From a virus (Duplodnaviria; Heunggongvirae; Uroviricota; Caudoviricetes), in IMG/VR virus record IMGVR_UViG_3300048587_000389, positions 64,001-94,156 of that record: a stretch of DNA of 30,156 nt, one strand, 5' to 3'. Shown here in pieces: positions 15,139 to 29,030 of the stretch (positions are counted from its first letter, which is position 1; each line of letters begins with the position of its first letter). A program made the position numbers and the translations under genes. The notes below the pieces were generated by a model that ran no database searches, was not told the origin of the DNA, and worked only from the letters and a program-made list of their open reading frames with translations.

Positions 15139-16080
15139 ATGCTCAAAGAATATGAATACGACCAGATCGATAATCTTGACGTCCTTGGAAGTTATGGGAT
15201 TGATTATGTTGTAGTTGGTGGTGACAATGCAATGTTTTGTTGTCCGTTTCATGGAGAGTCAAATCCTTCATGCGGAATGAGTGTCAAAACTGGTCTTTGG
15301 GGCTGCTTTGCCTGCGGTGAGAAGGGAAACATTCTTCAATTCGTTGCAAAGATGGATGGTCTTGAGTTAGTAGAAGCTGAAGATAAGATGCGCAAGATGT
15401 GGATCCAGAAAGCTGATCCAGATTCAATCGAAGAAAAAGTCAGACAAATCTTAGCAAGAAAAGATAAACCAAACAAACCAAGCAATGAGCCAGTACCAGA
15501 GTGGATGCTTAGCCAGTATGTTAAAGATTACACATACATGTATACAAGGGGCTTCACTGAGGAGGTATGTAACCATTTTAACGTTGTTTTCGATCCTAAA
15601 ACAGGCTATCAGGGAATCCCAATCTACGATGAACGAGGAAGATTGATAGGCTTGAGTGGCAGAAACACTAAAAATGAGGAGCCGCGGTATATAGCTCTCA
15701 TCAGATACCAGAAAGCACAAGTTGTTTTCAACCTCGATAAAATTGATAAAACACAACCTGTCATTGTTGTTGAGGGAGAAATAAATTGTATGTCGATGTA
15801 TCAACACGGATACACAAATACAGTAGCAGTTTTAGGCGCATCAATAGCTAACGACCAGATCGAGATATTAAGAAATGCGCAAATAAAAGAGCTCATCATA
15901 TTCTTTGACACTGATGCAGCAGGCAATCACGGTACAATTAAACTTATTCAGAGCCTGTGGAACTACATGCAAATTAAAGTTGTTGATGATCATGAAGGAG
16001 ATCCAAACACAATGACTAAAGAAGAGGTGGACAGACTCATATCAAACGCTGGTCCATATCAAATTACGGAGATACTATGA
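15139..16080 (+). CDS. dnaG: DNA primase (CHC2 zinc finger plus TOPRIM)
   Basis: CPFHGESNPS..WGCFACG zinc finger; VEGE..; FFDTDAAG. Start at ATG 15139, after the helicase stop. Confidence 0.92.
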   Translation: MLKEYEYDQIDNLDVLGSYGIDYVVVGGDNAMFCCPFHGESNPSCGMSVKTGLWGCFACGEKGNILQFVAKMDGLELVEAEDKMRKMWIQKADPDSIEEKVRQILARKDKPNKPSNEPVPEWMLSQYVKDYTYMYTRGFTEEVCNHFNVVFDPKTGYQGIPIYDERGRLIGLSGRNTKNEEPRYIALIRYQKAQVVFNLDKIDKTQPVIVVEGEINCMSMYQHGYTNTVAVLGASIANDQIEILRNAQIKELIIFFDTDAAGNHGTIKLIQSLWNYMQIKVVDDHEGDPNTMTKEEVDRLISNAGPYQITEIL

Positions 16081-16859
16081 AAACAAAATACCCAATTTTC
16101 ATCCTTAGCAAGGGAAGAGCTGATAAGAATCTCGCAAAGACATTCGGTTTACTGATGCAAGAGCCAGATTATGAGTTCACAATTGTTGTTGAGCCGCAAG
16201 ATCAAGAAGCATACACAAAAATGTTCTTTCCAAACGGGCAAATAAGCATCTTTGTTTTGAAGCAAAATGACATGGGAATTCCTTTTGCAAGACAGAGTCT
16301 GCTCGAATACTGCAGATCAGTCGGTATAGAGAAATACTGGCAGCTAGATGACAACATGACAGCATTTATTGAGCGCAAAGAAGATAAGACTAAAGTGAAA
16401 GTATCTCCTCAATATGCTCTGTCTAAGGTAGAAGAAATAGCAGACTCATACAAAGATATAAAAGTAGCAGGTCTTAACTATGAAGTAACAGCTCATTGGG
16501 CAACTGAACCATATACATTCAACAAGGGAGTATACTGCGCTGTTTTGACTTCAACAGACACCGGCATTGATTATGATCTTGACATCGAAATAGAAGATCT
16601 CAATTTTGTCTTGAAGCATCTCAAGGCTGGTTACAACACTTTGCTCTCAAACAATTATGTTATGGTTAAGCCAAAGACAGGCGCTACTCCAGGCGGCAAC
16701 AGGATGGGATTGTACTCTTCAAAAGAACACTACGAAAATGCTATCAAAATGTTGCATGAGAAGCATCCAGACTGTACTCGCTTTCACACAAGAAAAATTG
16801 GATGGATCGGTATTCGGACTTCATGGAAGAACTTTAAGCGCCAAATAGAAAAATGCTGA
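16077..16859 (+). CDS. GT-A fold DNA glycosyltransferase (T-even beta-glucosyl-HMC-alpha-glucosyltransferase / TET-associated GT-like)
   Basis: IFILSKGRA, GIPFARQ, YWQLDDN, EDLNF..LKAGY and K..TPGG motifs recalled from this family. Confidence 0.72.
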   Translation: MKTKYPIFILSKGRADKNLAKTFGLLMQEPDYEFTIVVEPQDQEAYTKMFFPNGQISIFVLKQNDMGIPFARQSLLEYCRSVGIEKYWQLDDNMTAFIERKEDKTKVKVSPQYALSKVEEIADSYKDIKVAGLNYEVTAHWATEPYTFNKGVYCAVLTSTDTGIDYDLDIEIEDLNFVLKHLKAGYNTLLSNNYVMVKPKTGATPGGNRMGLYSSKEHYENAIKMLHEKHPDCTRFHTRKIGWIGIRTSWKNFKRQIEKC

Positions 16860-16879
16860 TTTATCTTTGAACAATTACG

Positions 16880-16888
16880 TGATATAAT
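16880..16888 (+). promoter_or_regulatory. candidate extended -10 promoter (TG-A-TATAAT)
   Basis: Perfect extended -10 in the intergenic gap upstream of 16908. Confidence 0.45.
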
Positions 16889-16907
16889 AAGACTATCCAA
16901 AGCAAAT

Positions 16908-17933
16908 ATGGAAGAAAATATTGATGTATTCCACACAAAGATTGTTGGTGTTTCGTTTGAACAACGCCAATATGTCATTCAGACAATCGCAAGATTGGAA
17001 GAGTTTGACAAATCAAGAGTAGAACTCTTGCTTGTTCGTGAGCCAAACAACCAATACGATCCTTATGCAATAGCAGTATATGCACGATATGAAGATTCCA
17101 ATTTTCTTACGGAAGTAACTAAGCAAGTCGGTTACATCAAAAAAGACCTAGCACAAAAATTGTCCGAAGATATAGATACAGATTCGCCATACGATTATGT
17201 CATTACAGATTATGACACCACCGGCGGTAAAGGAAAATCACGAGGACTAAACATACAAATAGTACGAAAGGAAAAGACCATGGCAAAATTGTCAGTCAAA
17301 GACTTACTTAAACAACGTGGCGGAGCACGAAAAGACTTCGCAGATGTGTTCATCAAACCATCAGTAGACTTACCTCAACTTACAGTGCGTTTCTTAAAAC
17401 CACTTGAGGAAGCATACATTCAAGGCACTCACTTCATCGATATGCCAGCAGGTTGGCCAAAGCGAAAAGAAGTATTCGAGTGTTTGAAATACCTCAACAT
17501 GGACGATGAGGCTGAATGTCCAGCAGATCAGTTGGATCAACCAGCAGTATACTTCGTCCTACCAGTTATTGACCGAGCAGATGGAAAAGTCAAGCTCTTC
17601 AAGGATACACGAGCAGTGTTCCGTAACTTTGAAACATTCTCTGGTGAACCAGCTTCAGATGCTGAAAAAGCATTTAAGATTGGTGACCTCACAAGAGCAG
17701 ACATTCAAATTATTCAGACCGGTGAGAGAAAGACTAGAAAAGTTATGTGTTTCCCACATGCAGCTTCTATTAGAGATCTCAACGCAGAAGAATTGAAGTT
17801 ACTCGAAACTGCACCAAATCCACGTGATTTCGTATCAGTGAAGACTAAAGACGAGATTCAAGCAATCGTAGATACAGTGATTGCGGCTAAGAACGGTCAA
17901 ACGATAACTGCAAATAGCGGTTTCCAAGACTAA
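16908..17933 (+). CDS. HIRAN domain fused to a probable phage ssDNA-binding protein (gp32-like)
   Basis: HIRAN motifs TKIVGVSF, LVREPNNQYDPYAIAV and VGYI. The C-terminal part begins MAKLSV..FIKP..TVRFLKP and follows an internal RBS-like aagga plus ATG 17280. Confidence 0.6.
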   Translation: MEENIDVFHTKIVGVSFEQRQYVIQTIARLEEFDKSRVELLLVREPNNQYDPYAIAVYARYEDSNFLTEVTKQVGYIKKDLAQKLSEDIDTDSPYDYVITDYDTTGGKGKSRGLNIQIVRKEKTMAKLSVKDLLKQRGGARKDFADVFIKPSVDLPQLTVRFLKPLEEAYIQGTHFIDMPAGWPKRKEVFECLKYLNMDDEAECPADQLDQPAVYFVLPVIDRADGKVKLFKDTRAVFRNFETFSGEPASDAEKAFKIGDLTRADIQIIQTGERKTRKVMCFPHAASIRDLNAEELKLLETAPNPRDFVSVKTKDEIQAIVDTVIAAKNGQTITANSGFQD

Positions 17934-17951
17934 ATTTGAATAAGGAGCAAT

Positions 17952-18326
17952 ATGGTTGAAGCCCAACAGATAGGTACGCTATACCAAAAACTGGCTAAAG
18001 AGCATGATGAATATCGTACTCTGTTGGGCGCAACCCTTCATGGAAATGAACCTGCGAGTCTAACAGAAAGAATTGACAGACTTGCATTCCATGTCATTGA
18101 AGAGATTATAGAGATGCGAAGAACTTATCCTCATAAGTTTTGGCGCAAATCAGAAGAAGATGTGAAAGTTGAAGAAATGCTTGAAGAAGCAGCAGACATC
18201 TTCTTAATGATGAGATCAATGATTGCAGAAGTATGCACAGTTGCAGGAATAAATGAACAAGATTTCTTACAATGTGTGTTAGACAAAATTACAAAGAATA
18301 AAGGGAGGATTCAAAATGGATACTAA
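17952..18326 (+). CDS. all-alpha NTP pyrophosphatase (dimeric dUTPase / dCTPase-like)
   Basis: EEIIE..HKFW..EEAADI acidic motifs of the MazG/dUTPase-2/T4 gp56 superfamily. Confidence 0.7.
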   Translation: MVEAQQIGTLYQKLAKEHDEYRTLLGATLHGNEPASLTERIDRLAFHVIEEIIEMRRTYPHKFWRKSEEDVKVEEMLEEAADIFLMMRSMIAEVCTVAGINEQDFLQCVLDKITKNKGRIQNGY

Positions 18327-19008
18327 CATTGGTTTATTCAATAGACAAGACGGTATTATTCGTCCAGACGAATTACCCAAGCATGTAATGATTGTCGGCG
18401 CTGGAGGAATTGGTTCATGGACAGCACTAGCATTTGCAAAAATGGGTGCACAAAAGATTACGATTGTAGACTTTGACGATATAGAAGACGTTAATGTAGC
18501 ACCACAATTCTACAGACTTTCTGACATTGGCAAGAAAAAAGGAGAAGTCCTTAAGCAACGCATCAATGAAGAAATGGGCAAAGAGATTTGTGAATACATT
18601 GATGGAAGATGGGAGAATCTCGCGGTAGGAATGCCGGAGTATATAAGTGCCACAGATGTTGAGGTACTCGTAATGGCAGTTGATTCGATGGACATTCGCA
18701 TCAAGATATTCAATGACATAAAGTATGTCGGATTGAGTCTCATTATTGATGGCCGCATGGCTAAAGAACAACTCGAAATATTCGCTGTCAAAATGACAGA
18801 CCAAGAAGCAGTTCAGTATTATCAAAAGTATCTCTATCCTTCTTCGGAAGTAGAAGAGATAGCATGTACAGAACGCGCAGTGGCTTACAATCAGTTTGTC
18901 ATTGCAGGTTTAATTGGAGCTCTACTTAAACACTACGCTAAGGGAGAGCTTGAGACCAAACACTTGTTGTTTGATTTAGTCTCATTTATATGCGTAGAGA
19001 AAAATTAA
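18316..19008 (+). CDS. ThiF/E1-like ubiquitin-like-protein activating enzyme
   Basis: FNRQ, GAGGIGS, DFDDIEDVN..Q, KK, AVDS and DGRM motifs; candidate catalytic Cys in EIACTER; RBS ggagg. Confidence 0.88.
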   Translation: MDTNIGLFNRQDGIIRPDELPKHVMIVGAGGIGSWTALAFAKMGAQKITIVDFDDIEDVNVAPQFYRLSDIGKKKGEVLKQRINEEMGKEICEYIDGRWENLAVGMPEYISATDVEVLVMAVDSMDIRIKIFNDIKYVGLSLIIDGRMAKEQLEIFAVKMTDQEAVQYYQKYLYPSSEVEEIACTERAVAYNQFVIAGLIGALLKHYAKGELETKHLLFDLVSFICVEKN

Positions 19009-19022
19009 TGAAAGGAGGACCT

Positions 19023-19286
19023 ATGCGTCCAGGTGCCCGTCGCCGCTCTCAAGAAGAAGAGAGTACACTACTCCGCGTATCAGTGGTTCGGTTCGGAGGC
19101 CGCCCAGTAACAGTCGAGTTCGATGAAGACGAAGAGCTCACAGTTGAAGAGGCAGTCGAACAAGCAGGATTTACTATCAAAGAGCGTGATCACGTAACTG
19201 TAAACGGTCAAGAGGCAGAAGGTGATGACATCGTCGAAGACGGTGATCAAATCGTTCTCTCCTCACGTATGCAGGGTGGTCGATAA
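19023..19286 (+). CDS. ubiquitin-like beta-grasp protein (ThiS/MoaD-like) ending in GG-R
   Basis: RBS aaggagg before ATG 19023. Beta-grasp pattern LRVSVVRFG..TVEEAVEQAG..VTVNG..VEDGDQIVL; C-terminus MQGGR. Confidence 0.85.
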   Translation: MRPGARRRSQEEESTLLRVSVVRFGGRPVTVEFDEDEELTVEEAVEQAGFTIKERDHVTVNGQEAEGDDIVEDGDQIVLSSRMQGGR

Positions 19287-19307
19287 ATCATAAATAGGAG
19301 GGAGATC

Positions 19308-20204
19308 ATGTCACAAAGCATTTTAAGAACTACGAGAATGATACGACAGATTTTAGAAGACAAAGACGTACTACCAAAACGTGCTTGGTCTCCCTCCTTT
19401 GATTTTCGTTTTACAGCAAGAGAAGACTTTGCCAAGAAGATTATCAACACAGTAATTGCGGATGTCAGTATCCTTGAACACAGACGGAATGAGATCGGAA
19501 CGAGTGTTAATTTGTTACAAGATGAAGTACGTAGAAAGCGCAAAGAGCTAGAAGATACTGAGAAAAGATTAGAGGCGGTAAAGTCTTCTTTTTCTGTAGA
19601 AGGAAAGCAACAAGAAATAGACAGAATCATGAGCAACTTGCTCATTCAGGGTTACGAATTCAGAGACCCAGCAGTGACAATCTTTACCACTGAGTTTTTG
19701 CGTAAGGAGAACATTATATTAGGAGTCTTCCGTATATGGATAGACTGGTCAAAGCGTAACGCAAGTGAAGCATTGGCAATCATAAATGTGTATAAGGGAG
19801 CAGGTCACAATGATCATCCATGCTTGAGTAATGGAAGATTATGTCTTGGAAACTTCAGCACTCCGCTTGAAGCAGCATACAAAGAAAAGAATCTTTTCGT
19901 TCTTTTAGAAACGGTTATGGCTTTTCTTGCGCAAGAGAATCCCCCATCAGGTTACTACCATTCATGGGCAGAATGGAATAGAAGCACAGCAAAAAGAGAT
20001 AAAAACTTTGACTTCTCATCTTATGGCATTAGACCAGGAGATGTAGATAGAAGAGTACAAGAAAGACTGATGCAACAAACATGGTATCAGCATGCTAACA
20101 TACAAGCCTATGAAGGTGCAGCAACAACTGCGCCACAACGAGTGACATCATTCACATACACAACATCGTACGGTTCGGATGATGATAGTAACGTACCATT
20201 CTAA
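19308..20204 (+). CDS. prokaryotic E2-like conjugating enzyme with N-terminal coiled coil
   Basis: UBC-like HP..G..CLG motif (DHPCLSNGRLCLGN); lies between Ubl and JAB; RBS aggagg. Confidence 0.68.
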   Translation: MSQSILRTTRMIRQILEDKDVLPKRAWSPSFDFRFTAREDFAKKIINTVIADVSILEHRRNEIGTSVNLLQDEVRRKRKELEDTEKRLEAVKSSFSVEGKQQEIDRIMSNLLIQGYEFRDPAVTIFTTEFLRKENIILGVFRIWIDWSKRNASEALAIINVYKGAGHNDHPCLSNGRLCLGNFSTPLEAAYKEKNLFVLLETVMAFLAQENPPSGYYHSWAEWNRSTAKRDKNFDFSSYGIRPGDVDRRVQERLMQQTWYQHANIQAYEGAATTAPQRVTSFTYTTSYGSDDDSNVPF

Positions 20205-20213
20205 GGAGGACAC

Positions 20214-20939
20214 ATGAAAGTAATTCTTTCGCCATTAGCACATCTGAAAATGAAATACTACATAGACAACATAGGCTATGAGATTTCAGGAGTAGGTCTT
20301 GTTGAGAAACGACCAGGTGGAATTCTTTATGTGCCAGATCTCTTCTTAATCAAGCAAGAAGTAACAGGAGTAGAGACAACTTTAGATGAAAAATCACTCC
20401 ACGAATTCATGCTTGAGAAAATGCAAGACGAAAACTTTCCAGTAGAGAATCTTAAGTTGTGGTGGCACTCACATGTCAACATGGCAGTCTTCTGGTCCGG
20501 TGTAGATGTGGCCACAAGAAATACTTTAGACACAGATCAAGGTGAAGAAAACTGGTGGCTTTCTATTGTTGGCAACAAAAAGGGCGAGACAAAAGCTTGT
20601 CTTGATGTGTTCCAACCACACAGACTAATTATGGACGATATTCCAGTTGAAGTCGGTGGCATGTTTGAACTAGAAGATGCTATCAAGCTTGAAATTGAAG
20701 AAAAAGTCACTGTGAAGTATACACAGCCAGCAGACAAAACACCATCTATACCCCCATACAGCAATTCACAAGATTTTCACGGATTTAAGGGACAATCTCG
20801 AGACATTGATTTTGGTGATGAAGATTATGACATGCCACTTCATGACGTTGGAGATGCGGGTTTTAGAAGAACACAAAATGGTATATACTTACCTAAGAAG
20901 AATAAAAAGCTGAAAAAGCGCAACAATAGAGTTTTATAA
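20214..20939 (+). CDS. JAB/MPN+ metallopeptidase (Ubl-processing / deconjugating)
   Basis: Catalytic Glu in YEISG and WWHSHVNMAVFWSGVD (H-x-H-x7-S-x2-D); RBS aaggagg. Confidence 0.88.
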   Translation: MKVILSPLAHLKMKYYIDNIGYEISGVGLVEKRPGGILYVPDLFLIKQEVTGVETTLDEKSLHEFMLEKMQDENFPVENLKLWWHSHVNMAVFWSGVDVATRNTLDTDQGEENWWLSIVGNKKGETKACLDVFQPHRLIMDDIPVEVGGMFELEDAIKLEIEEKVTVKYTQPADKTPSIPPYSNSQDFHGFKGQSRDIDFGDEDYDMPLHDVGDAGFRRTQNGIYLPKKNKKLKKRNNRVL

Positions 20940-20948
20940 GGAGCATTC

Positions 20949-21875
20949 ATGAAAATACTCATAACAGGTGGAGCAGGTTTTTTAGGATCACTATTGGCAG
21001 AAGAACTTGCTGTCATGGACCACGATATTGTTGTGGTTGACAACTTAATGTATGGCGCAGAGGAGAACGTTCCAAAGATGTCGAATGTCATTTTCGTCAA
21101 GAAAGACATCAGACAACAGGACACATGGAACTATCTCAAAATGTATGGCAACTTTGATATTGTCTATCATTTTGCAGCACCATCATCAATCACACTCTTC
21201 AAACAAGATTTAGCAGGATGTTTAGATGACACAATCACTACATTTATTCATGCACTTAATTTCTGTGCAAAAACAGGAGCTCGTTTAGTGTATCCCTCAA
21301 CAGGAAGCTTATATGCTGGTGTTGATGGAGAGCAGACAGAAAATGCTGAAATTGATCTAAGCAGACTTAACGAATACGCCAAAGGAAAATGGGCACTAGA
21401 AAATATACAACTTGCTTATCAAGATGTAGTTGAAATTCTCGGTCTCAGAATCTTTGCAACATTTGGTGAAAGAGAAGAGCACAAAGGTGATTTTGCAAGT
21501 GTAGTATACATGTTTGCAAAGCAAATTCTTAATGGTGAGAAGCCTGTCATCTGGGGTGACGGTAAACAAAAAAGAGATTTCATCTATCAGGACGATGTGA
21601 TAAGCACGATCATTGATCTTTCAATGAGAGAGCACGAAGGTATCTACAATATCGGATCGGGCACGAATGTCTCATTTAATGATGTGATCAAAGCAATCAG
21701 TGATGTGTTGGAGAAAGAAGTAGAAGTAGAATATGTTGACAAACCACAGAACTACCTCGAAACTACAAAAGCAGACACTACACTTTTGCGTTATGCATTT
21801 GATAGTCATGATCTTGAATGGCAGGCGGGTAGTTTCAAAGATGGAGTTGCAAAAATGCTGGAGGCAATGAAATGA
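20949..21875 (+). CDS. NAD-dependent NDP-sugar epimerase/dehydratase (extended SDR, RfaD/HldD-like motifs)
   Basis: TGGAGFLGS, YAKGK (YxxxK), REEHKGDFASV, GDGKQKRDFIY and GIYNIGSG motifs. Confidence 0.88.
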   Translation: MKILITGGAGFLGSLLAEELAVMDHDIVVVDNLMYGAEENVPKMSNVIFVKKDIRQQDTWNYLKMYGNFDIVYHFAAPSSITLFKQDLAGCLDDTITTFIHALNFCAKTGARLVYPSTGSLYAGVDGEQTENAEIDLSRLNEYAKGKWALENIQLAYQDVVEILGLRIFATFGEREEHKGDFASVVYMFAKQILNGEKPVIWGDGKQKRDFIYQDDVISTIIDLSMREHEGIYNIGSGTNVSFNDVIKAISDVLEKEVEVEYVDKPQNYLETTKADTTLLRYAFDSHDLEWQAGSFKDGVAKMLEAMK

Positions 21876-22399
21876 GTAAACAACAAGTCATAATTATTGA
21901 GGGTATAGACATGGTCGGCAAAACGTCGATCATTAGAGAGCTCTCAAAAACGTTGAACATCCCAGCTTACAAAGAAATTCGTGAAGAAAAGTGGTATGAT
22001 CATAACATAGACTTGCTCTATGCAGAAGAGGCTCGCATCCAGATGCTTGAGCAAATTGGCTTTAGCATTATCTTTGACAGGTCTTATCCGAGTGAATGGG
22101 CTTATGCTCATGCTTATGAGCGCAAAACAATTCCTGAAAGAATTTTAGAGCTCGACAAAAGGTATGCTACATTAGGCACCAAGATAATCTACCTATACAA
22201 GTCACCAGAGTACTTTCAGCAAGATAAGACAAATCTCATAGATTTTAGTAAGTATTCGAGAATTGATGAGCGGTATAGAGAGTTCTTGCTCTTCAAAACT
22301 AAGTGTGACTACATGTTCTTAGATACATCTGATCAGAACATACACTCACAGGTAGAATCTATCTGTGACTTTCTTAATATCATAAAGGAGGAAGAATGA
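21872..22399 (+). CDS. deoxynucleoside monophosphate kinase (thymidylate kinase-like)
   Basis: IIEGIDMVGKTS P-loop and FDRS motif. Confidence 0.82.
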   Translation: MSKQQVIIIEGIDMVGKTSIIRELSKTLNIPAYKEIREEKWYDHNIDLLYAEEARIQMLEQIGFSIIFDRSYPSEWAYAHAYERKTIPERILELDKRYATLGTKIIYLYKSPEYFQQDKTNLIDFSKYSRIDERYREFLLFKTKCDYMFLDTSDQNIHSQVESICDFLNIIKEEE

Positions 22400-23361
22400 C
22401 AATAGGAATTTACAAACCATTCAAACCACTTTACTTTGTTGATGACACTTTAGATAATGCGGCATGGTCGTATGAGATCGTGCACATGTCTCAAATCTTA
22501 GCAGATCAAGGACATAGTGTCTACATTTTAAGTGAGAATGATTTGAATGATGACGAATCTGATTACTTCCAAGACAAAAACATCTTGGATGCATCAAAAA
22601 TGATATGGGATGACGAACAGTTTGTGTTTGACCGCATCATTATCTGGTGTGGCAGCTTTCAACTAGACAAGATTGGTGATGAAATTATCCCATTTTTCAA
22701 AGCACACACTCCACGACTAGATTTCTTTTTGACAGACAAAAAACTTATTCCTGAGACGATCGAGTATCTCTACATGTTTGACAACATCTATGTCCAGAGC
22801 ACTCTTCCGATCTACACACAAGATGATAAGTTTGGCGCATTAGGAGAGCTACTCCCTTACAAACATGAATGGACTAGAACAGTAGATGAAGCAATAGCAA
22901 GCAAGACGACTGAATTTTACTTTGGCGGCACAGAAAGAGATCGTTTAGACGACTTCTTAGAATATGTGTGGAGACCTGGACATCTAGTAACTACAAAGAG
23001 CCAGTTCCTTGGCATTGAGAATCGTATTGATCGCAACAAGTTCAAAGAAACTCTTGATACTGCAAAATACAGTGTAGTCATCACAGATGTGGTAAATAAT
23101 GAAGTTCACTTCATCTCACCTCGTCCTTACGAGCTCTACATGCATGACATTGTAGCTTTCTTTGATTACAAGTACGATGCTGATGAACACTTCTGCAGTA
23201 AAGATGATTGGCGAAGAGTACACAACTACAAAGAGTTGCGCACAAAGATGAATTATCTCAATGAAAATCCAGAATACTACAAGCAAATTCTTGAACATCA
23301 ACGAGCGCAGATTACACAAGATCTCATTGATGGCTCTTATGTGTACTCGATGACTAAATAG
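22396..23361 (+). CDS. GT-B fold DNA glycosyltransferase, T4 beta-glucosyltransferase-like
   Basis: Segments FLTDKKL, FYFGGTER and FISPRPYE..DIVAFFDYKYD..VHNYKEL..MNYL parallel remembered T4 BGT segments (LFTDIRL, IYGGSFR, FITLRVWE..IDEEFD..VNNRAEL..VNEL). Confidence 0.72.
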   Translation: MTIGIYKPFKPLYFVDDTLDNAAWSYEIVHMSQILADQGHSVYILSENDLNDDESDYFQDKNILDASKMIWDDEQFVFDRIIIWCGSFQLDKIGDEIIPFFKAHTPRLDFFLTDKKLIPETIEYLYMFDNIYVQSTLPIYTQDDKFGALGELLPYKHEWTRTVDEAIASKTTEFYFGGTERDRLDDFLEYVWRPGHLVTTKSQFLGIENRIDRNKFKETLDTAKYSVVITDVVNNEVHFISPRPYELYMHDIVAFFDYKYDADEHFCSKDDWRRVHNYKELRTKMNYLNENPEYYKQILEHQRAQITQDLIDGSYVYSMTK

Positions 23362-23372
23362 GATTGTACAAA

Positions 23373-23945
23373 ATGACACTTCAGGAATATAATAAACTCA
23401 TATTCAAAGAGTTAAAAGATAAATACGGGTACAATGTCGTAGGGTTCTTCAACGGCAACAAGATTTTTATTGTTGGCCAGAATCCAGGCAACCCAATGAC
23501 TGAAGAGCAGAAGGAAGAAACAAACTGGTTGATGTCTTTAGAAGATTTCGATGAAGTAGAAAGACACACTTCTGAGACATACAAGAGCACTTTATTCGGT
23601 AACTATGTGGATAAAGTAATAGGCGGTAGATGGGATATAGTATCCTTTAGCAACATAGTTAAAGTTCCTACAGCGGCCAACTCAGAGCCTACGAAAGAAC
23701 TCATAGATGAACAGTTTCCGATGCTTCTTAAACAAATAGAGTATGTTCAGCCTAGACTGATTCTCTTGTTTGGCAAGTTTGCAGGAAAAATGTTTGGAAT
23801 CAATAACTTTTACGGAGCAGGCATCTACAAAGGGAGTCACACTCTCTTATTGCCACACCCTTCATGGGTAATGCGCCAAGGAAAAGCTAAAGAAAAAGAA
23901 GAAATAGAAGCGGCCCAAAAGGTGCTTACTTATATAGAAGTATAG
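23373..23945 (+). CDS. uracil-DNA glycosylase superfamily protein (family-4-like motifs)
   Basis: IVGQNPG, SNIVK, LLFGKFA and LPHPS motifs; ATG 23373 with agga RBS. Confidence 0.75.
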   Translation: MTLQEYNKLIFKELKDKYGYNVVGFFNGNKIFIVGQNPGNPMTEEQKEETNWLMSLEDFDEVERHTSETYKSTLFGNYVDKVIGGRWDIVSFSNIVKVPTAANSEPTKELIDEQFPMLLKQIEYVQPRLILLFGKFAGKMFGINNFYGAGIYKGSHTLLLPHPSWVMRQGKAKEKEEIEAAQKVLTYIEV

Positions 23946-23952
23946 GAGGATT

Positions 23953-24942
23953 ATGTTGCATACGTATAGTGGTGTGAATCTTCAGGACATGTTCAAAACA
24001 GCTTTGTACGAACTTATGACTGAAGGAATGGTTGCATCTCCAAGAGGGATGGAAACAAAAGAGCTTACTCCAGTAGTTTTTGAAGTGAAGAACATTCTCT
24101 CTAGAATGATCTCATTAAAGAGCCGCAAAATGAATCCCTTCTACGGTATCATTGAAACTCTTTGGTACATGAATGGAGACAATGATGTTAAGCGCCTCAC
24201 TCCATACAACAAAGCTATGGCTAACTTCTCAGATGACGGCAATATCTTAGCTGGAGCATACGGAGAGCGATTAGTTGGCAAGAACAGAGAACTAGACAAA
24301 TCACAATTTGGTTTAGTGTACGACAAACTCACAAAAGATCCATCAAGTAGACAAGCAATTGCTATTATTTGGGATCCTTGGAGAGATTATGCCCCAACAA
24401 AAGATGTTCCATGTACAGTAGGATTCATGTTTACGATTCGTAATGAGAAATTGAACATGACTACAATAATGCGTTCCAACGATATTGTTCTCGGCACAAC
24501 TTATGATGTCTTTGCATTCACTATCTTTCAAGAGTTCTTGGCTCGTAAATTAGGTGTGGGACTCGGTACTTATACTCACTTAGCTAATTCATTCCACATT
24601 TATTCAAACCACTATGACAAAGCATGGGAAATGATCAAGGACAACACTCCTGCAGTACTCATGCCTGAGATGCCAGATACAAGTTGGAAAACATTCAATG
24701 AGCTTTATGACTTTGAGCGAAGACTCATCACTGACGAAATTGATTTGACTACAGCTCAGCAAGAAATAGAATTCATTGTTGATGCTCATGATGGCAATCA
24801 GTATTGGGCAGACTGGGCAAGAATGCTTGCGCTCCACAAAGCTATTAAGCTTGGTGATACAGAAAAAGTTGGCACATTCTACTCTGCACTACACAGTTCA
24901 TATCAAGCTATGACCCTTCCATGGGTAGAGAAACTCATCTAA
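23953..24942 (+). CDS. thymidylate-synthase-fold pyrimidine hydroxymethylase, probably dCMP hydroxymethylase
   Basis: YGERL, SSRQA, catalytic PC, RSNDIVLGTTYD (Asp at the substrate-specificity position) and SFHIY motifs. Confidence 0.78.
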   Translation: MLHTYSGVNLQDMFKTALYELMTEGMVASPRGMETKELTPVVFEVKNILSRMISLKSRKMNPFYGIIETLWYMNGDNDVKRLTPYNKAMANFSDDGNILAGAYGERLVGKNRELDKSQFGLVYDKLTKDPSSRQAIAIIWDPWRDYAPTKDVPCTVGFMFTIRNEKLNMTTIMRSNDIVLGTTYDVFAFTIFQEFLARKLGVGLGTYTHLANSFHIYSNHYDKAWEMIKDNTPAVLMPEMPDTSWKTFNELYDFERRLITDEIDLTTAQQEIEFIVDAHDGNQYWADWARMLALHKAIKLGDTEKVGTFYSALHSSYQAMTLPWVEKLI

Positions 24943-24943
24943 T

Positions 24944-27900
24944 ATGGAAAACAAATACGATTTTTGTCACTTACATCGTCACTGTGAAGCATCTGTTCAA
25001 GATGGCGCAGGGAAGATTGAAGATGGCATCAAATATGCGAAAGAAATGGGACACAAGGCTGTGGCTATTACAGATCACGGTAACTTGATCTCGTTTGTTC
25101 GTATGTTTAACCAGGCGCAAGACATAGACATCAAACACATCTTTGGTTTGGAAGCTTATGTTTGTGATGACATGAATCTAAAAGACAAGGATCACAGAAG
25201 CTACAATCACTGTACTATCCTTGTGAAAAATCAACAAGGTTTTCAAAATCTTCTTAAGTTGAATAACGCAGCACAAAAACATGGCTTCTACTACAGACCA
25301 AGAGTAGACTGGGATACACTGCTTAGACACAAAGAGGGACTTATCATCTTATCTGGTTGTGTTTTGGGTAAGACAGCGCAGCTTATTCTCAACGGTAAGT
25401 ATGAAGAGGCTGATGCTTGGACAAGAATGATGAAGGCTGAAATGGGTGATGATTACTACATCGAGCTCATGGCTTCTGATTATCCGGCACAAAAAGATGC
25501 TAACAAATATCTCCTTGAGTTGTCAGAAAAGTATCAGATTCCAGGTGTTTTAACTGGTGATGCTCATTATGTGCGCAAAGAAGACTATGAAGCACAGAAG
25601 ACTATGATGTTGATGTCAGCAAAAGCTACATTAGCAGATCTGGCAAAGCAAGAAGAAGAAAAGAAAACAGCTGAAGAGAGAGGTGAAACTTTCGATGAGA
25701 AAGACAAGATCTGGATTTTCTCTTCAGATCAGTATTGGATGAAGAATGAAAATGAGATGATCGAGTCATGGGATAAGTGGCACAAAGATTACTATCCATT
25801 CGAAAAGTTTGAACAGCATCTTAATGAATCAGGCAAGATTGCAGACAAGGTAGATGTAGTCAAACTAGACACTACGTACAAAGTTCCAAAAGCGATTGTT
25901 CCTGAAGGATATACACATGAAAACTACTTCATCAAACTTCTCAATGAGGCAATGATTGAAAAGGGATTAGATACAAAACAAGAGTATCAAGAGCGTTTAG
26001 CAACAGAAATTGAGATCATTAAAGAAAAGGGATTAGTCGATTACTTCCTTGTGAATGCAGACATCATAGGATGGGCAAAAAGAAATGACATCTTTGTTGG
26101 TCCTGCTAGAGGATCGGCTGGAGGCAGTTTAGTTTGTTGGCTTCTTAAGATTACAGAAATTGATCCACTTAAATATGATCTTCTGTTTGAGCGTTTCCTT
26201 GACTTAGGGCGCAAAGAGATGCCTGATATTGATACTGACTTTGAAATTGAAGAGAGAGATAGAGTCAAAGACTACATCTCAAGCAGATATGGTGAAGATC
26301 ACGTTGCAAACATTGCAGCATTAGGAAACTTTAGAGCTAAAAACATTATTCGAGATGTGTGTAGAGTGTACAACTACGATCCTCAAGAAGTCAATGCGAT
26401 TTCAAAAGAACTCGGTGAACATGCAACATTTGAGAATGGAAAGCTTTACGGCCCTGATGGTCAGGAAATTAGAAGTCAGATTCTAGATGAAGTGTTCACA
26501 AAGAATCCTGCAATCAAAAGAATCTCAGAAACATTGTATGGGCAGATCAGACACATCTCAAGACATGCTGCTGGTGTAGTTATTACAGACCGTCCATTGG
26601 ATGAGTGTATTGCTACTATTCGAGTAGGTGATGATGTTATGACAGCATGGACTGACGGCATATATAATAAGGAATTGAGCCAATTAAATGTCCTAAAACT
26701 TGACATACTGGGTCTCAAAACTCTATCAATGTTAAAGAAAGCATGTGCTTTTGCAGGATTCAGTTACAGAGACCTTCCAACAGAAGACTTAGAAGACAAA
26801 GAAGTATACGAAACAATCAATGATTTAGAGTTATTGAGTGGTGTATTCCAATTTGATTCTCATGCAGGATCGAGATGGTTTAAGAAAATGAAGCCGCAAT
26901 GCTTCAATGACATCGTTGCTTTGGCTGCTCTAGACCGTCCAGGTCCAATTGATTCTGGAAAGACAGAAGAGTACATCAAAGTAATGCATGGTGAGATTGA
27001 ACAAACTAAATTCAATCATCCAGCTGTGAGTGAGATTCTTGATCCAACATACGGTGCTATTGTGTATCAAGAGCAGCTTATGATTCTTGGAAAGAGATTT
27101 GCTGGCTTTACAGCAGCAGAAGCATCAACACTTCGTAAGAATCTTGTTAAGGGTACACACTCTGAGGCAGGAAAAACAAAGGAAGCACTTCAAAGAATAG
27201 AACTTCACAACAAATTCATTAGTGGAGCTGTGGCAAACGGATCTACTGAAGAAGATGCAGAAGCTATTTGGGATTTGATGGTCACATTTGCTAGATATGG
27301 TTTTAACAAAGCACACTCAGTTGCTTATGCGTTAGTATCATACTGGACTATGTGGATGAAAGTGCATTATCCAAGAGAATTCTATGCATCATTGCTCTCA
27401 TATTCACCAGAAGAAGATTTACATGCAATTGTCAAAGAGATGAAGAGAATCAATATTCAATTGGCAGCACCAGATGTGAACATTTCGAATTATGACTTTA
27501 CACCAAACAAAGAAGAAGCAAGTGTTCTCTTTGGATTAGGCAAGATCAAGTTCCTCGGCAACAAAGCAATTGAAAAGATTATTGAGCTTAGACCATTCAC
27601 TTCATTTGAAGAAATGTGTGAAAAGATAGAGAAACGAGTCCTCAACAAGAGAGGGAAAGAAGCACTCATCAGATCAAGTGCATTGCGTTCTCTTGAAAAA
27701 GATACAGGTCTTTTGCTTCAGCAATTGAATCAACAAGGCGCAAAGAAAAATGAGATCATTCGTTATGAAGAATATAGCGATGCAACTCGTTATGATGATG
27801 AGAGAACTTATCTTGGACTGTCAGTTAGTTTTGCTGATAGAGAAGAAGATAAGGGAAGCAAATTCAAGAGCTACAACAACATCACAATGCGAAAGCATCC

Positions 27901-28213
27901 ACTTTATGAGGAGCTCCTAGCTAAGTTTCAAAAGTGTGGTGGAAAAATGCCGCATGCAGTAACAGCAAGAGTGTATGACTATACAAGTGCTATCATTGCA
28001 GATATTGCAGTAACGAAAAATAGAAAGAACAAAGACCAGAAGATAGTGACATTACGCACGATAGATGATAAGACTATCAAATTTATTCTTCAAAACTGGG
28101 TTCTTCCGTTTCATGCATTTAACAAAGAAGTATTCAAGGGTGACTGCATTGAAATACTTTATGAGAAACAAGGGCAGTACTATCAACTTATCTCACTACG
28201 AAAGAGGGAATAA
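24944..28213 (+). CDS. dnaE: DNA polymerase III alpha subunit (family C) with PHP domain
   Basis: HLHRH, AITDHG, RGSAGGS, MPDIDTDF, SRHAAGV, KLDILGL and YGFNKAHS motifs. Confidence 0.95.
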   Translation: MENKYDFCHLHRHCEASVQDGAGKIEDGIKYAKEMGHKAVAITDHGNLISFVRMFNQAQDIDIKHIFGLEAYVCDDMNLKDKDHRSYNHCTILVKNQQGFQNLLKLNNAAQKHGFYYRPRVDWDTLLRHKEGLIILSGCVLGKTAQLILNGKYEEADAWTRMMKAEMGDDYYIELMASDYPAQKDANKYLLELSEKYQIPGVLTGDAHYVRKEDYEAQKTMMLMSAKATLADLAKQEEEKKTAEERGETFDEKDKIWIFSSDQYWMKNENEMIESWDKWHKDYYPFEKFEQHLNESGKIADKVDVVKLDTTYKVPKAIVPEGYTHENYFIKLLNEAMIEKGLDTKQEYQERLATEIEIIKEKGLVDYFLVNADIIGWAKRNDIFVGPARGSAGGSLVCWLLKITEIDPLKYDLLFERFLDLGRKEMPDIDTDFEIEERDRVKDYISSRYGEDHVANIAALGNFRAKNIIRDVCRVYNYDPQEVNAISKELGEHATFENGKLYGPDGQEIRSQILDEVFTKNPAIKRISETLYGQIRHISRHAAGVVITDRPLDECIATIRVGDDVMTAWTDGIYNKELSQLNVLKLDILGLKTLSMLKKACAFAGFSYRDLPTEDLEDKEVYETINDLELLSGVFQFDSHAGSRWFKKMKPQCFNDIVALAALDRPGPIDSGKTEEYIKVMHGEIEQTKFNHPAVSEILDPTYGAIVYQEQLMILGKRFAGFTAAEASTLRKNLVKGTHSEAGKTKEALQRIELHNKFISGAVANGSTEEDAEAIWDLMVTFARYGFNKAHSVAYALVSYWTMWMKVHYPREFYASLLSYSPEEDLHAIVKEMKRINIQLAAPDVNISNYDFTPNKEEASVLFGLGKIKFLGNKAIEKIIELRPFTSFEEMCEKIEKRVLNKRGKEALIRSSALRSLEKDTGLLLQQLNQQGAKKNEIIRYEEYSDATRYDDERTYLGLSVSFADREEDKGSKFKSYNNITMRKHPLYEELLAKFQKCGGKMPHAVTARVYDYTSAIIADIAVTKNRKNKDQKIVTLRTIDDKTIKFILQNWVLPFHAFNKEVFKGDCIEILYEKQGQYYQLISLRKRE

Positions 28214-28214
28214 T

Positions 28215-29030
28215 ATGAATCCAGAATTACAACAACAAGAAGGCTTGACTTTTGACTTATTTGTACAACATTTACCAGAACATTTTGATGGTCAAGTATT
28301 GAAAGACAGAAACTCAGGCACATATCTGCAATCTCGTTTTAGAGCTTCAGGTATTTCTTCACATCCAAGATCAGCAGTTCTTGATCTTTTGAATCTCCCA
28401 CCAGAGCAGTATCATTTTGCTGGATCAATGACAGCAAAATCTATCAAGCTTATGGAGAGAGGAACACAAATTCACAACTTCATTCAAGCAAAGTTCTTGA
28501 ATATGGGACTCATCAAAGAAGGAAACTTAGAGGCAGGATTACGTATCCAAGATGATGAGCTTCTCTTTAGCGGACATCCGGACGGTGTCATTTCATTCAA
28601 TGGTGAAGATGCTCTCTTAGAAATTAAGACAATCAACTCATTTGGTTTTAGAATTATTCGTGAACCAAAGCTTGAGCACTACCAGCAAGCACAAGCATAC
28701 ATGCACTTCTTAAAGAAATGCTACGGCTTAGATATTAAACGATGTTTGTTTGTATACGTTGACAGAGCAGATGATGACATGGCAATGAAAACATTTGTTG
28801 TTACAAAGGATGAGCAAACAATTGACATGATTCTGAACAAACTCAAGAAAATGAAAGAGTTCTTAGATGCAGGTCAAATCCCTCCAATGCAGCCTGGTGA
28901 AAAAGATATGGGAATGTATTCGCCATATAACACACCTGTTTTCTTGGATCCAAACAAAAATAGTATTGAGGACTTTCCAGGATACAGAATTAGCGCAAAT
29001 GTGGCTACTCGTAATGTCTTTAGTGAATAA
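28215..29030 (+). CDS. PD-(D/E)XK exonuclease (RecB/Cas4-like)
   Basis: RGTQIH, GHPDG, LEIKT and HYQQAQAY motifs; start at ATG 28215 with gaggg RBS. Confidence 0.82.
   Translation: MNPELQQQEGLTFDLFVQHLPEHFDGQVLKDRNSGTYLQSRFRASGISSHPRSAVLDLLNLPPEQYHFAGSMTAKSIKLMERGTQIHNFIQAKFLNMGLIKEGNLEAGLRIQDDELLFSGHPDGVISFNGEDALLEIKTINSFGFRIIREPKLEHYQQAQAYMHFLKKCYGLDIKRCLFVYVDRADDDMAMKTFVVTKDEQTIDMILNKLKKMKEFLDAGQIPPMQPGEKDMGMYSPYNTPVFLDPNKNSIEDFPGYRISANVATRNVFSE

Follow-up and report, generated by a model that had tools for sequence, protein, structure and literature searches.

The T-even phages provide the textbook case of a viral genome in which one base is replaced and then decorated: dCTP is depleted, 5-hydroxymethyl-dCTP (hm-dCTP) is made and incorporated, and the resulting 5-hydroxymethylcytosine (hmC, or 5hmC) receives one or two sugars. 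In T2 and T6, the set comprises the gp56 dCTPase, the dCMP hydroxymethylase gp42, the gp1 kinase, an α-glucosyltransferase with GT-B fold, and a β-glucosyl-HMC-α-glucosyltransferase. Phage DNA with glycosylated hmC is protected from restriction enzymes and certain CRISPR effectors, and the modified base is in turn targeted by type IV restriction systems. The phage homologues of thymidylate synthase (TS) on which such pathways depend yield hm-dCMP or hm-dUMP or, according to recent work, 5-hydroxy-dCMP. Here, we analyse a gene block from a tailed virus of the class Caudoviricetes, contained in a stretch of 30,156 nucleotides (IMG/VR record IMGVR_UViG_3300048587_000389, positions 64,001 to 94,156; this whole stretch is hereafter called the window, and coordinates refer to it unless stated otherwise). 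Judging in silico from folds, active-site residues and gene linkage, we consider it likely that the block directs pre-replicative replacement of cytosine by hmC and post-replicative glycosylation of the modified base.

Outside the T-even group, glycosyltransferases (GTs) paired with epimerases install hexose, N-acetylhexosamine (HexNAc), hexuronate or heptose on 5hmC, and in viral contigs, GT-B enzymes resembling the T4 β-glucosyltransferase (BGT) frequently have a TS homologue as neighbour (Pyle et al., bioRxiv 10.1101/2023.12.21.572611). The window encodes a TS homologue, a BGT-like GT-B, a second transferase with GT-A fold, and an epimerase.

A candidate route from dCTP to glycosylated hmC

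An earlier note on this DNA had listed six enzymes of a T-even-like pathway, namely a dCTPase/dUTPase-like enzyme, a TS-fold hydroxymethylase, a dNMP kinase, a BGT-like GT-B, a GT-A resembling the second glucosyltransferase of T2/T6, and the phage's own nucleoside diphosphate (NDP)-sugar epimerase. All six genes are present as intact, co-directional open reading frames (ORFs) on the + strand, which carries every gene in the window, and they are separated from their neighbours by −19 to +48 nt; the six assignments are borne out by the evidence given below. The genes belong to a single, tightly packed operon for replication and nucleotide metabolism that spans 13.8–30 kb, with gaps of −38 to +53 nt throughout, one listed ORF start excepted. 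At several junctions, including primase/GT-A, epimerase/kinase and kinase/GT-B, the start of one gene overlaps the stop of the preceding gene by 4 nt.

In the proposed pathway, a small NTP pyrophosphohydrolase would convert dCTP to dCMP. Based on its residue signature, the TS homologue would then use dCMP and methylene-tetrahydrofolate (methylene-THF) to form 5-hydroxymethyl-dCMP, with a phage serine hydroxymethyltransferase (SHMT) recharging the folate, and a P-loop kinase acting together with the host NDP kinase would deliver hm-dCTP for incorporation by the phage DnaE-type polymerase. In the replicated DNA, the GT-B would flip out hmC and glycosylate its hydroxymethyl group, Asp114 being the predicted base, and the donor would be a host NDP-sugar converted by the phage epimerase, so that the sugar is probably one other than glucose. 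The GT-A would either extend this first sugar, as the T2/T6 enzyme does, or glycosylate hmC left free by the GT-B. The expected outcome is DNA that resists most restriction enzymes. The order of events from dCTP through dCMP, hm-dCMP and hm-dCTP to glycosyl-hmC is that of the earlier note, and all computational tests (the hydroxymethylase signature, the SHMT, the BGT-like GT-B and the T6-like GT-A) agree with it.

The candidate dCTPase (17952–18326, + strand; 124 amino acids) is an all-α pyrophosphohydrolase of the superfamily that includes MazG, the dimeric dUTPases and T4 gp56. The protein matches Pfam dUTPase_2 (PF08761) just above the cut-off (7.5e-5; 23.5 bits against 22.9) and a PHROG annotated as nucleotide pyrophosphohydrolase (9e-6), and the motif EExxE...ExxD, formed by Glu50, Glu51, Glu54, Glu79 and Asp82, is invariant in seven orthologues. 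A profile search of the PDB returned only dimeric dUTPases and the MazG-like entry 5ie9, all with weak E-values (0.014–0.8), and a weak C-terminal match to T4 gp56 was observed, where both proteins end in NGY. It counts against this step that the family matches are weak and that specificity for dCTP is not readable from the sequence; a preference for dCTP is suggested by the pathway context only.

The kinase (21872–22399, + strand) is a P-loop nucleotide kinase related to thymidylate kinases (PHROG thymidylate kinase, 3e-15; Pfam AAA_28, 1e-7) with a weak BLASTP match to RB69 gp45, and we regard it as a candidate hm-dCMP kinase. The kinase–GT–TS gene position is the same as in the phages DLP3, RB69 and RL38J1 (PMC13326640). 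The SHMT gene (Pfam SHMT, 1.8e-163) lies beyond the window, shortly after the point where genome end and start meet, at genome positions 1064–2194, and homologues are found downstream of RecA in two of the related phages described below (L003 and L015). An SHMT fits a folate-dependent hydroxymethylase operating at high flux, since it can supply methylene-THF. The polymerase (24944–28213, + strand) is a DnaE-type DNA polymerase III α subunit (DNA_pol3_alpha, 2.6e-72) with PHP, finger and HHH_6 domains, and its gene lies directly 3′ of the hydroxymethylase gene in all relatives.

Two glycosyltransferases, an epimerase and the donor sugar

The GT-B (22396–23361, + strand) is identified as a relative of T4 BGT by fold, residues and PHROG assignment (PHROG BGT, 4e-10), and a pairwise BLASTP comparison with T4 BGT gives an E-value of 5e-4. 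A phmmer search against PDB sequences returned no match; the kinship with BGT emerged solely from the pairwise BLASTP comparison, the family alignment and the fold search. We built an AlphaFold2 model on 48 family members (predicted local distance difference test, pLDDT, 94.7). When the model was compared with the PDB using Foldseek, ranks 1–5 were all occupied by T4 BGT, with E-values from 1.9e-9 to 3.3e-7 and template modelling (TM) scores of 0.66–0.70, and the T4 α-glucosyltransferase (AGT) ranked after BGT. The catalytic Asp100 of BGT aligns with Asp114 in the window enzyme, and the UDP-binding residues Arg191, Arg195, Arg269 and Glu272 correspond to Arg181, Arg183, Arg243 and Glu246. These five residues are invariant or nearly so in the 48 family members. 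The family itself is small: a set of 1.84 billion proteins contains only 113 cluster representatives of it. Because of the fold, the retained residues, and the position of the gene between those of the kinase and the hydroxymethylase, transfer to 5-hmC appears the most plausible reaction, and the GT-B probably adds the first sugar to hmC in DNA.

The question of the donor is informed by a comparison with related phages. The TS homologue has 17 close homologues with 53–69% identity, and six 20-kb loci from related uncultured phages (L001, L003, L004, L012, L013 and L015) were compared with the window by means of a tblastn presence matrix, giving seven genomes in all. The common gene order is DnaB–primase–HIRAN-SSB–NTPase–[E1-Ubl-E2-JAB]–[epimerase]–kinase–GT-B–[UDG]–hydroxymethylase–DnaE–nuclease–RecA, where brackets denote genes found in some genomes only; SSB stands for single-stranded DNA-binding protein, Ubl for ubiquitin-like protein and UDG for uracil-DNA glycosylase. 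L012, L013 and L015 share with the window the epimerase (43–54% identity), the same type of kinase (56–68%) and the same type of GT-B (60–64%). These three genes are jointly missing from L001, L003 and L004, which instead carry a different kinase and a BGT-like GT-B of 367–402 amino acids that is only 12–15% identical to the window enzyme but has the same catalytic residues. The epimerase thus accompanies the window-type GT-B of approximately 320 amino acids in all four genomes that have it, and is found in none of the three genomes with the other GT-B type, i.e., epimerase, kinase and GT-B travel as one module across the seven related genomes.

The epimerase (20949–21875, + strand) is an extended short-chain dehydrogenase/reductase (SDR) of the NDP-sugar epimerase type (Pfam Epimerase, PF01370, 8.4e-39), in which GGAGFLG represents the Rossmann motif GxxGxxG and YAKGK the catalytic motif YxxxK, in agreement with the earlier description. 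It exceeds no equivalog cut-off in NCBIfam (heptose 6-epimerase, 172 of 275 bits; GalE, 90 of 262 bits), and its neighbours in the PDB and the Atlas are heterogeneous, comprising UXS as well as epimerases that act on UDP-hexose, UDP-HexNAc or ADP-heptose. The failure of NCBIfam, PDB and Atlas comparisons to assign a substrate is a point against the proposed pathway. The genome encodes no second epimerase and no sugar-1-phosphate nucleotidyltransferase (NTP_transferase); the possibility that the phage makes its own sugar nucleotide was therefore rejected, and the donor must derive from an NDP-sugar of the host. The constant association of the epimerase with the window-type GT-B supports a role for it as maker of the GT-B donor, by analogy with the experimentally demonstrated GT and epimerase pairs of Pyle et al., and on the basis of this linkage the sugar attached to hmC is probably not glucose. 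The earlier suggestion that a phage-encoded epimerase may imply a non-glucose sugar is thereby strengthened.

The second transferase (16077–16859, + strand) is a GT-A of the TAGT family, and its assignment to the group of the second T2/T6 glucosyltransferase, proposed earlier, agrees with several matches: Pfam TAGT (PF20691) at 5.4e-25, with 89 bits against a cut-off of 27.5; PHROG 842, annotated as “beta-glucosyl-HMC-alpha-glucosyltransferase”, at 2.6e-32; and the T6 beta-glucosyl-HMC-alpha-glucosyltransferase itself by BLASTP, at 7e-8 with 22% identity over 226 residues. A profile–sequence comparison with the T6 enzyme by hhalign was weak (E 0.004), and phmmer against PDB sequences gave no match. 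The family motifs SKGR, DDN, ED and GGN are intact. The TAGT family was named for its genomic association with TET/JBP dioxygenases, a trait of context rather than of structure; no Tet_JBP match was found here, nor in the control genomes, and the partner is instead a TS-type hydroxymethylase, as in T6. The predicted structure (pLDDT 86) shows the GT-A fold; its top PDB matches include TarP, its top match in Swiss-Prot is the TAGT domain of GREB1, and these neighbours are the same as those described by Pyle et al. (bioRxiv 10.1101/2023.12.21.572611) for phage GT-As that modify DNA. Based on homology and gene position, it is probable that the enzyme acts on DNA, where it would add a second sugar or work in parallel with the GT-B.

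The most serious rival to this reading is that the TAGT enzyme or, less likely, the epimerase acts on a substrate other than DNA. In that case, hmC would be glycosylated by the GT-B alone, possibly with glucose as the single sugar, and the GT-A, possibly together with the epimerase, would serve virion proteins or a polymer of the host envelope. Several observations point in this direction. The TAGT gene is missing from all six related loci, as far as the syntenic block is concerned, and is present only in the window phage; its nearest relatives, with at most 34% identity, have terminase and radical-SAM genes as neighbours, and no base-modification enzyme is visible there; and its structural neighbours include TarP, which is an enzyme of teichoic acid, and GREB1, a protein glycosyltransferase that shares the TAGT fold. 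The epimerase, moreover, is the only one in the genome. Against these points stands the location of the TAGT gene: it forms an insertion that separates the primase gene from the SSB gene and, through the 4-nt overlap with the primase stop, is translationally coupled to the primase. A further counterpoint is homology to the T6 enzyme, whose substrate is glucosyl-hmC DNA, and phage GT-As of TAGT type glycosylate 5hmC in DNA (bioRxiv 10.1101/2023.12.21.572611). The epimerase, for its part, co-varies with the BGT-like GT-B among the relatives. Taken together, we regard the non-DNA alternative as unlikely.

Returning to a pathway in which both transferases modify DNA, we tentatively propose that the product is an undescribed hmC glycan, with a non-glucose first sugar made by the epimerase and transferred by the GT-B, and a second sugar added by the TAGT enzyme. 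Epimerase, kinase and GT-B would then form a cassette that is exchangeable within this one phage lineage and gives sister phages chemically different DNA coats. This more detailed picture is considerably less certain than the pathway as such.

The base made by the thymidylate synthase homologue

The TS homologue (23953–24942, + strand) has the TS fold (Pfam PF00303, 2.7e-26), and its best match among solved structures is the CMP hydroxymethylase MilA (8e-38), which aligns over the full length including the C-terminal extension. The enzyme was aligned with T4 gp42, T6 gp42, RB69 gp48, SPO1 gp29 and the SP10 enzyme, and seven active-site positions were compared. The enzymes of T4, RB69, SPO1 and SP10 all share the catalytic Cys154. 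At the seven positions, the window enzyme has Arg133, Asp151, Cys154, Thr155, Ser175, Asp177 and Asp185 (R-D-C-T-S-D-D). T4 and T6 gp42 have the same residue at each of the seven, although overall identity to gp42 is only 23%. The corresponding residues are R-E-C-T-S-N-D in RB69 gp48 and R-D-C-N-S-D-N in SPO1 and SP10. The signature of gp42 type is retained in 118 of the 120 nearest database homologues.

Several of these positions have been connected with specificity. Asp185 is at the position of Asn177 in E. coli ThyA, where T4 and T6 gp42 as well as MilA also have Asp, and SPO1 and SP10 have Asn; Asp in place of Asn177 is a cytosine determinant in the TS superfamily (PMC5175136, PMC13326640). 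Asp151 provides an acidic residue at the position of ThyA Leu143, which has been linked to water access and a hydroxymethyl product (Lee et al., PMC13326640). MilA, which belongs to the mildiomycin pathway of Streptomyces, likewise has Asp at both the Leu143 and the Asn177 positions, but uses Lys133 and Ala176 to select ribo-CMP. The window enzyme has Arg133 and Ser175 at these two positions, as do the deoxyribo-specific enzymes, and Arg/Ser rather than the MilA pair indicates a deoxyribo substrate (Zhao et al., PMC5175136). The signature is thus that of the T4/T6 hydroxymethylase, in agreement with the earlier reading of the gene, and not that of the enzymes making 5-hydroxycytosine or hydroxymethyluracil (hmU). 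From these residues, together with the SHMT gene and the lack of an alternative route among the genes found in the genome, we predict hm-dCMP as the product with high confidence.

Two other products have to be considered. The first is 5-hydroxy-dCMP, with the sugars carried on the C5 hydroxyl group (glycosyl-5hoC), as made by the flavin-dependent TS homologues of RB69, DLP3 and RL38J1. In favour of this product, the order kinase–GT-B–TS recurs in DLP3 gp78-80, RB69 gp45-48 and RL38J1 gp214-216, and MilA is the best solved match of those enzymes as well (PMC13326640). The flavin-dependent 5-hydroxy-dCMP synthases are, however, marked by the substitution D169N (Lee et al., PMC13326640), which is missing here: Asp177 occupies the position of ThyA Asp169, as in T4/T6 gp42, and RB69 gp48 has Asn. 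An SHMT in the phage and its relatives also fits folate-dependent rather than flavin-dependent chemistry. This possibility was rejected for want of D169N, and we consider it very improbable.

The second is hm-dUMP, in which case hmU would replace thymine and be followed by glycosylation as in base J, or by another hypermodification. Here, the closest named phage relatives are of concern, as the best such tblastn matches are the dUMP hydroxymethylases of SP-10, SPO1 and CP-51, with 39–43% identity over residues 1–221 (43% for SP-10, over two thirds of the protein); since these are the nearest named enzymes, the cytosine assignment rests on few residues, and this weighs against it. A UDG-superfamily gene adjoins that of the hydroxymethylase, and according to the titles of the PDB entries, structures of T4 AGT and BGT have been solved with hmU-containing DNA. 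Nevertheless, Asp185 stands where all uracil-specific enzymes have Asn, the catalytic Cys is followed by Thr rather than by the Asn of SPO1 and SP10, and Asp at the former position is an established cytosine determinant (PMC5175136), for which reason hmU chemistry was also rejected and is given hardly any weight.

A post-replicative route to hmC through a TET-type oxygenase was rejected as well, as neither a C5-methyltransferase nor a Tet_JBP match was found in the genome, although the control genomes gave no Tet_JBP match either. No second TS homologue was found elsewhere in the genome.

The hm-dCMP assignment can also be set beside the sequence composition of the phage. When palindromes in the whole genome were counted and compared with Markov expectation, AT-only and AT-core palindromes proved to be avoided genome-wide. 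The mean observed/expected ratio (O/E) is 0.59 for AT-only hexamer palindromes, compared with 0.99 ± 0.19 for non-palindromic AT-only hexamers, and the avoided sites include CATATG (0 observed, 28 expected), GATATC (9 and 29), AATATT (15 and 45) and TTTAAA (10 and 30). No such deficit is seen for hexamer palindromes centred on a C/G pair (mean O/E 1.07). Among the tetramers, GCGC is over-represented (220 observed, 136 expected). NdeI, AseI, SwaI and ApoI still cut phage DNA containing glycosyl-cytosine, and DLP1/DLP2 DNA was cut by NdeI alone among 16 enzymes (Lee et al., PMC13326640). Thus, the avoided sites are those that a bulky cytosine modification would leave unprotected. The related loci do not show the avoidance, which may instead reflect the restriction enzymes of the host; both points weaken the argument, and as a signal of modification the avoidance is suggestive only.

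Genome setting and relation to described systems

The virus record is complete, with 94,156 bp and direct terminal repeats, and the window represents its final 30 kb. Upstream of the operon are genes for a head–tail adaptor, a protein with a weak match to major tail proteins, and an 868-residue tape measure protein, and no match to a tail sheath was found among the 10 window proteins scanned, the scan not being exhaustive. These genes fit a tail of siphovirus type, as the earlier note had stated. Among 50,697 phage records, megablast detected none with nucleotide similarity to the block, and the best identity of the DnaE polymerase to any phage protein in the collection is 33%; the lineage must therefore be considered uncultured and undescribed. 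The TS homologue, used as a single-sequence query against a viral contig collection, likewise found no relative.

Apart from the pathway genes, the same part of the operon encloses three further elements that the earlier note did not name: an E1–Ubl–E2–JAB cassette, a HIRAN–SSB fusion and a UDG-like gene. The cassette (18316–20939, + strand) lies between the NTPase and epimerase genes and consists of overlapping frames for an E1 (ThiF, 1e-21), a Ubl protein with a C-terminus reading QGGR, i.e., ending in GG-R, an E2-like protein with an invariant HPC...CxGN motif, and a JAB peptidase whose JAMM motif (E...HxHx7Sx2D) is invariant and intact. PADLOC matched only the E1 part of E1–E2 models of CBASS type, and for the E2-like protein a PDB profile search gave only coiled-coil noise and the Atlas a weak structural lead to a CBASS E2. 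A role for ThiF and Ubl as sulfur carrier for a thiosugar, or as a part of the modification, was rejected in view of the neighbouring E2-like protein and intact JAB peptidase. The cassette is present in five of the six related loci and missing from L013, which retains the whole pathway; it is therefore separable from the base-modification chemistry, and was rejected as a part of it. Where the other genomes have the cassette, L013 carries genes for an S-adenosylmethionine (SAM)-dependent methyltransferase and a SAM synthetase (L013:6469-8140), a hint that modification in this phage may differ or include a further step.

The second element (16908–17933, + strand) is a HIRAN domain (Pfam HIRAN, 2.5e-8) fused to a ssDNA-binding fold like that of gp32. 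In an Atlas structure search, residues 4–120 resembled a HIRAN cluster (TM 0.85 by hit) and residues 127–331 resembled gp32-like clusters (TM 0.60 by hit). The gene is kept beside the primase gene in all six relatives, and the fusion is probably a phage SSB with an added module for binding 3′ DNA ends, with a function in replication rather than modification. The third (23364–23945, + strand; Pfam UDG, 5.8e-13) lies between the GT-B and hydroxymethylase genes and encodes a divergent, family-4-like member of the UDG superfamily, with weak matches to family-4 UDGs and the motifs GQNPG and HPS. It occurs in four of the seven genomes, L012 and L015 being among those that lack it, and might excise uracil or deaminated hmC. 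Like the cassette, the HIRAN–SSB fusion and this accessory gene can be separated from the pathway. Downstream of these genes, a Cas4/RecB-like nuclease is listed as an ORF at 28065–29030 that overlaps the DnaE gene by 149 nt; a likelier start is the ATG near 28215, which immediately follows the DnaE stop and is served by a ribosome-binding site, GAGGG. A protein with Ro60/TROVE and vWA domains is encoded a few genes 3′ of RecA in a relative (L001:17530-19158, L002:8793-10421).

With this locus, use of the T-even strategy is predicted for a further lineage, one of siphovirus type with a DnaE polymerase. The seven genomes constitute a natural experiment, in which a shared hydroxymethylase is combined with two alternative kinase/GT-B modules, one of them always with an epimerase, and in one genome with a TAGT enzyme. 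They offer a handle for pairing orphan sugar epimerases with DNA glycosyltransferases, and the small set of enzymes provides candidate tools for labelling of DNA. Knowing the sugar used by a phage also makes it easier to foresee its host range and how sensitive it will be to defence systems. As the underlying concept is established, the value of these findings is incremental.

Compared with the gentiobiosyl-hmC system of T2 and T6, the window shows the same pathway logic, an identical hydroxymethylase signature, a location of the genes among replication genes, and a pair of transferases consisting of one GT-B and one GT-A of the TAGT/Ggt family (BLASTP 7e-8). The differences are that the GT-B is BGT-like rather than AGT-like, that an epimerase is linked to it, and that the kinase resembles thymidylate kinases rather than gp1. 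The phage itself, of approximately 94 kb and DnaE siphovirus type, is unrelated to the Straboviridae. T4 BGT is the best structural match of the window GT-B in the PDB, and equivalents of Asp100, Arg191, Arg195, Arg269 and Glu272 are kept, but sequence identity is approximately 25% (14–16% in structural alignments), the window enzyme is 30 residues shorter, and it forms a small family of its own that is paired with an epimerase.

The phages RB69, DLP3 and RL38J1 (Lee et al., NAR 2026, PMC13326640) have in common with the window a thymidylate kinase-like kinase followed by GT-B and TS genes, a MazG-like dCTPase, and several GTs, which in their case build mono- to trisaccharides on the C5 oxygen. 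Their TS homologues carry D169N and hydroxylate dCMP with flavin, whereas the window enzyme keeps Asp and the hydroxymethylase signature, and genes for arabinose or galactofuranose donors are not found in the window. The “subclass II” biosynthetic gene clusters of Pyle et al. (bioRxiv 10.1101/2023.12.21.572611) resemble the window in that a GT relies on a partner epimerase and in that GT-As of TAGT type act on DNA. In the clusters tested, however, 5hmC is formed after replication by a C5-methyltransferase and TET, and the epimerase is paired with a GT-A. In the window, hmC would be formed before replication by a TS homologue, no methyltransferase or TET was found, and the epimerase is paired with a GT-B. 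The concept of GT and epimerase pairs acting on 5hmC is thus published and not new. Specific to the present locus are a BGT-like GT-B that travels with an epimerase, the addition of a T6-type GT-A, and the exchange of kinase and GT-B between sister phages of a new DnaE siphovirus lineage.

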